Below are positions 11,252 to 13,166 of a stretch of 13,166 nucleotides of DNA, in pieces (the first letter of the stretch is position 1; each line of letters starts with the position of its first letter). Under the pieces are notes generated by a model. That model was given only the letters and a program-made list of their open reading frames with translations, ran no database searches and was not told the DNA's origin. A program made the position numbers and the translations under genes. Location: the NCBI GenBank assembly GCA_040905425.1, contig JBBDRO010000004.1, positions 1-13,166 of the forward strand. Reading direction: 5' to 3'. This DNA comes from Gemmatimonadota bacterium (GTDB taxonomy: Bacteria > Gemmatimonadota > Gemmatimonadetes > Longimicrobiales > RSA9).

Positions 11252-11307
11252 GCGAGGTGTCCACCCGACCGATCCCGGGCAGGCCCTTGTCTTACCAGAT
11301 TTCTACC

Positions 11308-11553
11308 ATGAAATCTACCATTGACGCCGCCGGCCGGGTCGTGATTCCCAAGGGTCTGCGGGCCAGGCTGGGGCGGACTGGAGGCCAGACCATCCAGATT
11401 CGCGAACGGGATGGCATCATCGAGATCGAACCTGCCGCTACGTCCATGACGCTGGTGGATCGTGGCGGGGGTCCGGTGGCGATACCGGAGCAGGAGCTCC
11501 CGACGCTCACGGATGAGCAGATGCGGGCCACCATGGAGCGGACGCGCCGTTTA
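11308..11553 (+). CDS. AbrB/MazE/SpoVT-family antitoxin; ancestral stop apparently lost, so the frame reads through to 11889
   Basis: MKSTIDAAGRVVIPKGLRARLG is the AbrB motif. The family-like end LTDEQMRATMERTRR is followed by TTA where TGA is expected. CAGATT-N6 precedes the ATG. Confidence 0.85.
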
Positions 11554-11618
11554 TCGTCGTGGACACCAGCGTGGTCGTGGCGTGTTTCTTTCTCGGAGTC
11601 GGCGCGGGAATCGTCTGA
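11550..11618 (+). pseudogene. vapC: VapC PIN toxin 5' remnant
   Basis: TTT in place of TTG, then IVVDTSVVVACF, the PIN N-terminal motif. Similarity ends at about 11588 and a stop follows at 11616-11618. Confidence 0.75.
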
Positions 11619-11945
11619 CTTGGTGACCCGGACGGCTCACCTGGCGGTGCGGCATTCGAGTACTTTGAGCAGATCGCGTCGTCCTGCATTCCGCCGACGT
11701 GTTCGTGCTCCTGGTCTAGGTGAAAACCACCTGCTCTTCCAGCGGGACCCGGTCTACGCCGTTCTTGCGAATCGACTTTACCGATCCGGAGGACAACCGC
11801 GGATCTGCAGGGCCGGGTCGCAGGCAGCCTCGAGGTGCACGGGTGGGAAGGTGGTGCCCAGCCGAATGAGGCCGTGGCAGGAACGGTAGCCCAGCTCGGG
11901 ATGAGGCCGGCTCAGGCCCACGACCACCTGCCGTCCCGTGGGAGC
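11606..11945 (-). mobile_element. Degenerate IS21-family remnant (istA C-terminus joined to an internal istB fragment)
   Basis: Frameshifted segments SRPHPELGYRSCHGLIRLG...LEAAC..AL, SVKSIRKNGVDRVPLEE and LDQEHEHV resemble the IstA C-terminus. GRRDLLKVLECRTAR*AVRVT..Q resembles the IstB motif RRDLLEvleDR...T.vTSQ. Confidence 0.75.
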
Positions 11946-12005
11946 GCATGGCTTGTCGTATCGCCCCCCGGGCCAGGAAAATATGACCACTGATAGCATA
12001 ACGAC

Positions 12006-12038
12006 TTCCGAACAACTTTCGAACAAGTCTCGAACAAT
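12006..12038 (+). repeat. Three tandem 11-bp direct repeats with core CGAACAA; probable regulator-binding array
   Basis: TTCCGAACAAC / TTTCGAACAAG / TCTCGAACAAT. Confidence 0.8.
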
Positions 12039-12044
12039 TCCTGG

Positions 12045-12073
12045 TTGCGAATGGCGTGGGCCTAACCCATGCT
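12045..12073 (+). promoter_or_regulatory. Candidate sigma70-type promoter for the Cys-rich peptide gene
   Basis: TTGCGA-N17-CATGCT immediately downstream of the repeat array. Confidence 0.35.
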
Positions 12074-12165
12074 TCGATGTGCATGGACGATCCACCGAGC
12101 GCTGGTGCAGGATCTACTGGTCTCGGAGACGATGGATCTTCAAGAACTCTCGAGCAGGAGGCGAG

Positions 12166-12468
12166 ATGGCTGAGGAAGGCAAGTGGACAAGGGCGATGAA
12201 GGTCATGCGGTTAAGTGGGCTCGCCGTGATTTTCGTCATAGCTGGCCTGGCAAACGACGCGCAGATCACGGCAGCGGAGGAGGGTTGCAGTAACGTATTT
12301 AAGAATTGCACCTCAGACCCGCAGTGTGATGACGTGAAGGGAGATTCGTGCAACGCCGGAACGGTGCAGTGCCCGGGCCAATATGTCTGCGGGGGTCACG
12401 AGAACTGCGACGAAGACCCGTCAAATCCTGTTGCACTGTGGTGCATGGTGGACAACCCCCCGGATTGA
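12166..12468 (+). CDS. Small secreted cysteine-rich protein (100 aa, 8 Cys)
   Basis: AGGAGG RBS before ATG 12166, a basic n-region plus hydrophobic LSGLAVIFVIAGLA, and an acidic mature part with C-x6-C-x5-C-x7-C-x6-C-x5-C-x5-C-x11-C. Confidence 0.8.
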   Translation: MAEEGKWTRAMKVMRLSGLAVIFVIAGLANDAQITAAEEGCSNVFKNCTSDPQCDDVKGDSCNAGTVQCPGQYVCGGHENCDEDPSNPVALWCMVDNPPD

Positions 12469-12479
12469 GCGAAGGCAGG

Positions 12480-13111
12480 GTGAGAGCTTCGATGGCGGTG
12501 GGAGGGCACGCCGCAGTACTTGCGGCTTGGCTTCTTGCCGGCTGTGTCGGAGATGATGTAAATACGCCTCAGTTTGACTTTGGCGGGACCTTTTCACGGT
12601 ATGACAGCGCCGGGACCATCATATCCGTCACTGCCGAAACGGCAGCTCGAGCCTCCCTCGGCTGGCTCTTCGACTCAGCCGCTGACTTCGAGCTGGGAGC
12701 GAACGATAGTCCGCTCCATGAGTTTCACAGAATCGCCGGGGTTAGGCAGCTTCCCGGGGGGCACGTTGTCGTCCTAGACAGCGGCGACAGGGAGCTGCGG
12801 TTCTTCGATCAAAACGGAACGCTCTTCCGGCGCATCGGCCGGCAAGGCAATGGCCCCGGCGAATTCGAGGATCCGGTGCTCGTTTCAACCTCGCGTGCCG
12901 ACTCCTTGGTCGTTTGGGACGTGAGGCTCAGGCGGCTTCACATCTACTCGTCGGACGGATTTGTGCATCGGCTGATCCGACCCGCTTCCTGGGCCGGCGG
13001 CCGTCCACCGGTGGGAGTGGCCGGGTCGCAGAGGCTGGTCGATCACGCGGCGTACCCGCATCCAGCTGGAGGGGGCACCCAGCAGGGCGTTTGGGAAGAG
13101 CCCCCTAGGGT
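12480..13111 (+). CDS. Lipoprotein 6-bladed beta-propeller (NHL/TolB-like); probably interrupted by an IS at 13112
   Basis: Absent from the ORF track because the frame has no stop in the window. The start is GTG 12480 or ATG 12492. It has lipobox LAGC and the segments DSAGTII, VVVLDSGDRELRFFDQNG, IGRQGNGPGEF and DSLVVWD..LRRL. Confidence 0.85.
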
Positions 13112-13166
13112 CAATACCGTTCACTTAGCGTTGACAAGGGGGCGCCGAGGATGTAGCTTGCCGGTC
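13112..13166 (+). mobile_element. Left end of a putative IS4-family (IS4 subgroup) insertion sequence
   Basis: CAATACCGTTCACTTAG resembles the IS4 terminal repeat TAATGCCGATCAGTTAAG. It follows the palindrome CCCTAGGG and precedes an inward-facing promoter. Confidence 0.65.
13131..13159 (+). promoter_or_regulatory. Sigma70 promoter, probably of the transposase
   Basis: TTGACA (13131-13136), N17, TAGCTT (13154-13159). Confidence 0.75.

Follow-up and report, generated by a model that had tools for sequence, protein, structure and literature searches.

Introduction

In human NHLRC2 and Arabidopsis SOQ1, a thioredoxin-fold enzyme works together with a propeller of the NHL type on the oxidising side of a membrane. 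Published accounts place a redox motif at the interface between the thioredoxin (Trx) and NHL domains of both proteins (PMC6107167; bioRxiv 10.1101/2021.03.16.435614), and the NHLRC2 account describes no conserved neighbours in 7 bacterial genomes (PMC6107167). Here we describe a similar combination in bacteria. It came to light in a 13,166-nucleotide stretch of a Gemmatimonadota genome (hereafter the window, numbered from its first letter), in which a gene for a small secreted protein with eight cysteines, the mini-protein, is followed by the gene of a propeller lipoprotein. We found that these two genes form a recurring pair in Gemmatimonadota, usually with their own gene for a DsbA-like oxidoreductase. 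We refer to the set as the module.

NHLRC2 and SOQ1 differ from the module in several respects. Their domains are fused and carry the motif CC(I/V)NC, whereas the module genes are usually separate, the enzyme has a DsbA-type CPYC consensus and the propeller is a lipoprotein. In addition, the operon includes a gene for a candidate client, the 8-Cys mini-protein. With separate genes and a DsbA-type enzyme that lacks CC(I/V)NC, the module does not belong to the NHLRC2/SOQ1 type. There is no agreed client for SOQ1 or for the disease-linked NHLRC2. The module encodes redox enzyme, propeller and candidate client together in bacteria, and the partnership is therefore directly testable.

The module can also be compared with substrate-dedicated DsbA paralogs, such as SrgA with the PefA fimbriae and DsbL/DsbI with AssT. 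There, too, an extra DsbA-like gene is located beside the gene of a cysteine-bearing exported protein. In the module, however, the presumed substrate is a four-disulfide mini-protein of 60 residues, and a propeller lipoprotein is the third partner. The module is a member of neither NHLRC2/SOQ1 nor the substrate-dedicated DsbA systems.

Propeller lipoproteins of Bacteroides (DUF5128, DUF4221, TolB_like; structures 3s9j, BVU_1028, and 4raa, BF0058) share propeller family and fold with the module; we know of no function for 3s9j or 4raa. TRIM-NHL domains bind RNA inside eukaryotic cells. In the open-access and bioRxiv literature we found no paper on Bacteroides propellers or TRIM-NHL with a Cys-rich partner, and none on a module of Cys-rich protein, NHL propeller and DsbA. 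Methylamine dehydrogenase (MADH) has a seven-bladed periplasmic propeller as its heavy subunit and a small, heavily disulfide-bonded light subunit that carries a tryptophan-derived quinone. By comparison, the module propeller has six blades, and the alignment of the mini-protein family described below (A3) has no invariant Trp or catalytic-looking residue, its invariant-type positions being Cys, one Gly and one Ala. An MADH-like light subunit was rejected for the lack of a conserved Trp. Plant SCR/SP11 and the S-receptor kinase provide an analogy only, that of a hypervariable 8-Cys mini-protein and a cognate partner from the same locus. There is no homology, and the structural trace to 6kyw_D (Z 2.3) is at noise level. 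The very large expansion of propeller lipoproteins in Gemmatimonadota, a phylum that is common in soil and sediment and poorly studied, is explained in small part by the module.

Results

The mini-protein belongs to a family of small cysteine-rich proteins

The N-terminus of the mini-protein is charged at its start and then hydrophobic (LSGLAVIFVIAGLA), and leads into ITA/AEEGC, where the slash marks the putative cleavage site. It reads as a Sec-type signal peptide with an A-x-A site just ahead of the Cys-rich domain. The mature part of 63 residues contains 8 Cys, 13 Asp and Glu, and 2 Lys and Arg. Its cysteines are C41, C48, C54, C62, C69, C75, C81 and C93, with spacings of 6, 5, 7, 6, 5, 5 and 11. 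The spacings in the relative from genome G014, read from the sequence by eye, are nearly the same (6, 5, 7, 6, 5, 6 and 10). The original prediction for this DNA, made from the sequence alone, had described a 100-residue open reading frame (ORF) with a strong ribosome-binding site, a signal peptide and an acidic 8-Cys mature domain, and each of these is present (Table 1).

A word-indexed search with the mini-protein returned only itself. When 73 genomes of the same family were searched with the single protein, 4 of the 73 gave matches at E<=0.05, including its own genome (G000). The match in G014 is the sole convincing one (E 8.7e-6), and the hits in G050 and G068 were judged to be chance. A profile of the window and G014 proteins gave 15 matches at E<=1e-3 among 1.84 billion representative proteins. 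Thirteen of them, both queries counted in, are proteins of 90-158 residues with a signal peptide and an acidic Cys-rich domain; the other two are unrelated repeat proteins. In the alignment of the 13 sequences (A3), seven cysteines are invariant (C41, C48, C54, C62, C69, C75 and C93). C81, the cleavage-site Ala and one Gly are nearly invariant, and the remainder varies freely. Because the profile search found 13 small relatives with conserved cysteines, the mini-protein is a member of a real family and not a chance ORF. In its own genome, the A3 profile detected a second copy on contig C2 (E 5.7e-9) and a weak third on C58 (E 0.006), both located 5' of propeller genes.

Searches of Pfam (E up to 1) and NCBIfam gave no family for the mini-protein. 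The best match of its profile to Protein Data Bank (PDB) sequences has an E of 0.49. AlphaFold2 with alignment A3 predicted a compact strand-helix-three-strand domain at residues 41-95, with a block predicted local distance difference test score (pLDDT) of 86-94 over 41-90. Against solved structures, the best Foldseek match in the PDB has an E of 0.59 and the best of 48,161 chains in VIA-align a Z of 3.3; a look-alike search of the ESM Atlas gave nothing usable. The original prediction had not recognised the peptide family and had proposed a profile-type search with it. Neither that search, run here as a family profile, nor the Pfam, NCBIfam, PDB and fold searches matched a characterised family. 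The mini-protein appears to be an undescribed four-disulfide scaffold with a confidently predicted fold and a hypervariable surface.

Several other identities were considered and rejected. The mini-protein has a Sec signal peptide instead of the leader of a ribosomally synthesised and post-translationally modified peptide (RiPP) precursor, and no maturase (radical SAM, YcaO, lanthionine synthetase or like) is adjacent. In the window and in related loci, the neighbouring genes that were scanned encode nothing but regulators, DsbA-like proteins and propellers, and a scan of the window genes agrees with the earlier remark that the window holds no RiPP enzyme. An anti-sigma factor was rejected, as the protein has no cytoplasmic domain and its cleavage site is conserved. 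A peptide of the NVEALA type was rejected on the lack of any Pfam match at the threshold given above.

The propeller is an NHL-type lipoprotein

The lipobox (LAGC) propeller ORF with a GxxGxGPGEF signature, reported previously 11 nucleotides (nt) downstream of the mini-protein gene, is present as described. It matches the Pfam model DUF5128 '6-bladed beta-propeller' (E 9.4e-6; 25.5 bits, with the cut-off at 22.9). The model for a single NHL repeat gives an E of 0.11 and stays under its cut-off. The window propeller is 40% identical to the intact G014 propeller over 180 residues. It spans positions 23-238 of the 456 in the profile and has an incomplete set of the six blades, as a truncated member of the family. 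The propeller profile A4 matched TRIM-NHL chains with E down to 5.7e-48, PAL with 2.4e-6 and 4raa with 2.6e-5. Foldseek placed TRIM-NHL first (6d69, 1e-10), followed by the Bacteroides structures 3s9j (6.6e-8) and 4raa (7.3e-8). The intact G014 relative is modelled as a full propeller with a mean pLDDT of 91. Profiles and model together point to a clear NHL-type fold. A likeness to Bacteroidota loci of small secreted peptide and six-bladed propeller had been suggested. It holds for the propeller (DUF5128, and the fold matches to 3s9j and 4raa) and fails for the mini-protein with its zero Pfam families.

The lipidation site is the sole conserved Cys in the propeller family. The propeller is thus not itself a redox protein, because no other cysteine is conserved.

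Mini-protein and propeller genes recur together

The gene context of relatives found with the A3 or A1 profile was read at five places outside the window. A propeller gene follows the mini-protein gene in all five (G014, G422, L031, L032 and contig C2 of the same genome), and a DsbA-like gene is found in four. The gene order in G014 is an extracytoplasmic function (ECF)-type sigma gene, mini-protein, propeller lipoprotein and DsbA-like gene. In G422, from another family of the same order, a LuxR/GerE-type regulator precedes mini-protein, propeller and DsbA-like gene. L032, a JGI metagenome contig with the relative P0011, encodes mini-protein, propeller and DsbA-like protein. L031, a contig of a Gemmatimonadales metagenome-assembled genome with the relative P0014, encodes mini-protein and propeller and ends about 400 nt later. 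On C2, the DsbA-like gene is located between the mini-protein and propeller genes. A weaker hit in G178 (E 7e-4, 6 Cys) also has the order mini-protein, propeller, DsbA-like gene. The module genes are tightly coupled or overlapping. Mini-protein and propeller are a recurring gene pair in Gemmatimonadota, usually with their own DsbA-like gene.

As judged from its sequence, the usual third partner is a membrane-anchored DsbA-like oxidoreductase, which the original prediction could not have seen; any such gene at the window locus would lie beyond its end. This enzyme matches Pfam Thioredoxin_4/DSBA. The A2 consensus has the active site CPYC, in which only the two Cys are invariant.

Mini-protein and propeller are inherited together and predicted to bind

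In a tree of 100 propellers, the window fragment, whose row fills 42% of the columns, falls in a clade of eight with a Shimodaira-Hasegawa-like approximate likelihood ratio test (SH-aLRT) support of 99. An A3-family mini-protein lies upstream of six of the eight. Other mini-protein types go with other propeller clades in the same tree. The labels change 8 times along the tree, compared to a mean of 14.2 after shuffling, and none of 500 shuffles was as low. This supports the view that the mini-protein family and its propeller clade are inherited together.

Co-folding of the peptide with an intact propeller homologue, as proposed originally, was carried out on the G014 pair. The mature mini-protein and mature propeller were modelled with purpose-built alignments and three controls. 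The complex was predicted with an ipSAE of 0.78 (0.80, 0.75 and 0.78 in separate runs), compared to 0.00 for the best of the three controls. It contains 82-85 contacts, at least 95% of which are common between runs, and the partner pLDDT is 82-84. In G014 numbering, the predicted interface involves propeller residues 162, 185-187, 202-211, 242-259 and 323-325 and residues 43-92 of the mini-protein. Of 157 solved complexes, 116 attain the ipSAE mark that the pair passed, as do 2 of 215 mismatched pairs; with alignments of our own, this calibration is only roughly valid. The prediction supports binding between the G014 mini-protein and propeller.

The pattern extends through the genome and the phylum

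The genome was screened regardless of position for ORFs in which a basic residue is followed by a hydrophobic segment and which have 6 or more Cys, a net acidic charge and a mature part of 35-110 residues. A strict filter returned eight ORFs genome-wide. All eight are located upstream of a propeller paralog, on the same strand and within 2 kb, and such zones make up 11% of the genome. A looser filter returned 13 ORFs, nine of them upstream of propellers; the other four appear by eye to be parts of non-secreted proteins. A survey upstream of propeller homologues for short ORFs with signal peptide and cysteines had been suggested with the original prediction, and the pattern seen here is in line with the enrichment it looked for.

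The propeller family is greatly expanded in this genome. There are 89 six-frame matches at E<=0.01 and 116 ORFs with a purpose-built profile, or about 110 paralogs. The paralogs often form tandem arrays (for example C32:65078-73838, C37:39361-44886, C58:13707-30175 and C106:20148-48639), and most have no Cys-rich partner. One matches Pfam TolB_like. At C58:27454-30593 (L012), an ECF-type sigma gene is followed by a 12-Cys mini-protein, a propeller, a 42-residue fragment of a second mini-protein and a second propeller. The two propellers barely differ (branch lengths 0.061), suggesting that they arose by a recent tandem duplication. On C59 (8184-8624) and C110 (15-461), acidic secreted ORFs of 146-148 residues with 6-7 Cys lie directly downstream of propeller genes and may represent a further type of partner.

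DsbA-like genes of this type are present in 382 of 401 sampled genomes, a tally that includes G250, G168, G128 and G228, which are flagged as unpublished. Six of the nine DsbA-like ORFs in the window's own genome abut a propeller gene. We read 20 DsbA-like loci, comprising the 19 best matches outside this genome and one chosen for its long open frame. A Cys-rich secreted mini-protein ORF is adjacent in 14 of them and a propeller in 13, and nine have all three genes. The link between mini-protein and DsbA-like gene is thus the most constant in the 20 loci, and the propeller is a frequent third partner.

One of the 20 loci, L052 (G260:C2, 2951-4672, minus strand), is a single ORF of 573 residues with a DsbA-like domain at 12-224 and a propeller at 249-561. 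It is the only such fusion among the 20 loci, and a search for longer fused DsbA-like forms found none, which is weak evidence. No Cys-rich mini-protein ORF was seen upstream of it. On C58, a membrane-anchored ORF of 203 residues (19672-20283, minus strand; L012:7672-8280) is located between an ECF sigma gene and the C58a mini-protein gene. It contains a CxxC motif (SCNSC) and has no Pfam match; its sequence suggests that it may be a divergent thioredoxin-fold partner.

The window copy is interrupted by an insertion-sequence-like element

Public contigs from four sediment-metagenome runs of one study were aligned to positions 11900-13166. Two of the runs are possibly the source DNA, so they are not independent. 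From 13105/13112 onward, the depth rises from 41.9 to 127-207 in X1 and from 6.7 to 48-56 in X2. At least three different flanks join at 13105/13112. One public contig of 1975 nt carries 13112-13166 together with an inverted copy of the first 19 nt of that segment about 1.49 kb away. The depth jump, the several flanks and the inverted 19-nt ends are the signature of a multicopy insertion element, resembling an insertion sequence (IS). The original description of this DNA as IS-scarred is supported at the right end by the same three features. The tail of the element is not assembled elsewhere in this genome, and the repeat is visible in the public contigs only.

The propeller gene of the window is cut by the IS-like element at about codon 211 of about 420. 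The original prediction could not see this truncation, and the position 13111 at which it ended the module is the exact junction with the element. No public contig extends the propeller gene beyond 13111, although contigs can drop rare variants. A search of the contig ends recovered neither the remainder of the propeller nor any DsbA-like gene for this copy in the assembly. Because the element interrupts the propeller at 13111/13112, the window copy of the module is probably dead, and the mini-protein gene alone is intact.

Discussion

The original prediction left a choice between a ligand/receptor, a toxin/immunity and a peptide/maturation pair. Synteny, recurrence, co-inheritance and the complex prediction uphold a functional pair; they do not by themselves select one of the three. 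The explanation that we rate highest, and adopt tentatively at a little under even confidence, is that a Sec-exported, DsbA-oxidised mini-protein docked on its cognate propeller lipoprotein forms a stable envelope complex. As read from the sequence, the mini-protein would be exported by Sec and cleaved after A-x-A. The linkage of the genes suggests that the module's own DsbA-like enzyme would oxidise the eight cysteines to four disulfides. In the predicted model, the folded acidic domain and its cognate propeller lipoprotein would dock 1:1 at the membrane. The working unit would be this complex rather than the peptide by itself. It is probably a regulated envelope binding or sensing device, because regulator genes often flank the modules: of the ECF sigma type on C58a, C58b and G014, of the OmpR type at C52 and of the LuxR/GerE type at G422.

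A number of observations weigh against a stable envelope complex of this kind. The complex score is the model's own confidence and no evidence of binding in the cell. The window mini-protein is just 24-40% identical to its relatives, and the A3 subfamily is rare, being found in 4 of 401 genomes sampled from the phylum, with scoring limited to 12 candidates in each. No RNA run was found to contain this DNA. In the window itself no DsbA-like gene is seen, as the contig stops in the insertion. Both cysteine filters were written after the first examples had been seen, and the eight of eight and nine of 13 ORFs upstream of propellers describe a pattern and are no blind test. The DsbA profile was built from propeller-linked copies, and the 20 loci lean to that subfamily. 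About 100 propeller paralogs in the genome have no mini-protein, and neither do two members of the window clade, C115_11522 and C47_33988. Five of the 14 loci with mini-protein and DsbA-like gene (L035, L037, L038, L045 and L047) are without a propeller in a search with a purpose-built profile, and the propeller is therefore not obligatory for every mini-protein type. The next genes in these five loci encode other exported or membrane proteins, as judged by eye from their N-termini.

Next in rank, and in our view unlikely, is a role in maturation. By analogy, the module would be a split counterpart of the cleft between the thioredoxin-like and NHL parts of NHLRC2 and SOQ1: the propeller, anchored at the inner membrane next to the DsbA-like enzyme, would hold the nascent mini-protein during disulfide formation, and the folded product would be released. 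The redox motif at the Trx-NHL interface of SOQ1 (bioRxiv 10.1101/2021.03.16.435614) is consistent with this, as are the single DsbA-propeller fusion (L052) and a link of mini-protein to DsbA-like gene (14 of 20 loci) at least as strong as that to the propeller. However, a predicted docking with 82-85 contacts fits a stable complex better than it fits a transient holdase, and no exporter for a released product is encoded nearby. Mini-protein family and propeller clade also change together, which a general foldase would not need.

The remaining two explanations rank lower still, and equal to each other. The mini-protein could be a disulfide-stabilised, bacteriocin-like toxin that the DsbA-like enzyme matures and the propeller neutralises in the producer. 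The fast change of mini-protein sequences around fixed cysteines, the several divergent pairs in one genome and the patchy distribution would fit such an arrangement. So would the tight coupling or overlap of the genes, the specific interface that is predicted, and the GC content of the modules, which is below that of the genome, together with their position close to remnants of mobile elements or toxin-antitoxin systems. Most membrane-active peptides carry a positive charge, however, and the mature domains here are highly acidic, one of them with 13 acidic and 2 basic residues. In addition, regulator genes flank many modules, which contain no outer-membrane export system, and a 2012 survey reported that no beta-propellers had been found among polymorphic-toxin immunity proteins (PMC3482391). 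We regard a toxin-immunity pair as improbable.

The same improbability attaches to a signal-receptor pair, in which the mini-protein would be a secreted disulfide-rich pheromone or kin-recognition signal and the propeller a periplasmic receptor feeding the adjacent regulator. The regulators directly upstream in C58a, C58b, G014, C52 and G422 speak for it, as do the 11-nt-period arrays upstream of the mini-protein genes on C4 and C52, described below. Such arrays occur in only 2 of the 13 upstream regions examined, however, and the window copy has no adjacent regulator gene. The propeller itself lacks a signalling domain, nothing predicted connects it to a transducer, and there is no outer-membrane route for the peptide. 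In its broadest and equally improbable form, a diderm phylum would use the disulfide-rich mini-proteins as peptide signals or as tags for kin recognition, with a dedicated propeller reading each of them and a connection to the adjacent ECF sigma, OmpR-type or LuxR-type regulator. On that reading, the roughly 110 propeller paralogs of each genome would together make up a repertoire of receptors for peptides in the periplasm.

Additional features of the window

The positions of the features discussed here are listed in Table 1.

Table 1. Features of the window and their positions
Feature	Position	Strand	Remarks
Genes of ordinary housekeeping appearance	up to 11251		DinB-type polymerase, M20 peptidase, Cys/Met pyridoxal-phosphate enzyme, M14 carboxypeptidase, multicopper oxidase, amidohydrolase
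Three direct 11-nt repeats	12006..12037	+	TTCCGAACAA-C, TTTCGAACAA-G, TCTCGAACAA-T; array start 157-160 nt upstream of the mini-protein ATG
12-mer TTGCGAATGGCG	12045..12056	+	also just after the repeat array before the C52 mini-protein gene
Shine-Dalgarno AGGAGG	12156..12161	+	4-nt spacer to ATG; from sequence
Mini-protein gene	12166..12468	+	pre-protein of 100 residues; ATG 12166, stop TGA 12466-12468
Putative mini-protein signal peptide	~residues 1-37, 12166-12276	+	from sequence
Mature acidic 8-Cys domain	residues 38-100, 12277-12465	+	from sequence and alignment A3
Propeller lipoprotein gene, first ~211 codons	12480..13111	+	NHL-type six-bladed; GTG start 11 nt past the mini-protein stop
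Cys codon of lipobox LLAGC	12543-12545	+	from sequence
GRQGNGPGEF motif	12837-12866	+	from sequence
End of IS-like element	13112..13166	.	multicopy; contig terminates within the element; depth jump, multiple flanks

The direct repeats upstream of the mini-protein gene had been described as a repeat-array promoter. The triple repeat is real: none of 200 shuffles of the upstream 300 nt reached the array score, and two such units at 11-nt spacing occur in the window only within this genome. The promoter role was not borne out, with no site in a sigma-70 consensus scan. A second array of three 11-nt units with a different unit sequence, followed by the 12-mer TTGCGAATGGCG as in the window, is found at C52:19640-19680. 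The array is located at -158 of a paralogous mini-protein gene, compared to -157 in the window, and directly 3' of an OmpR-type response regulator gene. The two arrays (C4 and C52) are those found among the 13 mini-protein upstream regions. The 12-mer TTGCGAATGGCG has four copies in the genome, of which those on C4 and C52 are intergenic and those on C21 and C112 lie inside long ORFs. Direct repeats spaced by one helical turn are typical of OmpR/PhoB-type binding sites. The window array is possibly a regulator binding array, as its sequence suggests. No regulator gene was seen next to the window copy, and a tblastn search with the G014 sigma gene gave no match on C4.

The window is the entire contig C4 of a 4.12-Mb genome (115 contigs, guanine and cytosine (GC) content 70.5%), and C4 has no sequence past 13166. 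Beyond the housekeeping-like genes, the GC content of the window falls from about 70% to 56-63%. The lower GC content originally noted around the module was borne out: windows spanning 12001-12600 have 56.5-58.3%, the mini-protein ORF has 57.4% and the propeller fragment 63.4%. Across this genome, module genes have 52.7-64.4%, all below the median propeller gene (69.4%). About 550 nt before the repeat array contain no recognisable gene, and the ORFs at 11462-12165 matched no Pfam family at E up to 1.

An ORF resembling an AbrB/MazE-type antitoxin is found at 11257-11618 (Pfam MazE_antitoxin E 1.2e-4; NCBIfam AbrB domain E 1.7e-9). To its 3' side, in another frame, only about 21 codons resemble the start of a PIN toxin (FIVVDTSVVVA...) and are followed by a stop. 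From its sequence, 11257-11618 appears to be a vapBC pair in decay, situated where the lower-GC stretch begins on its left side.

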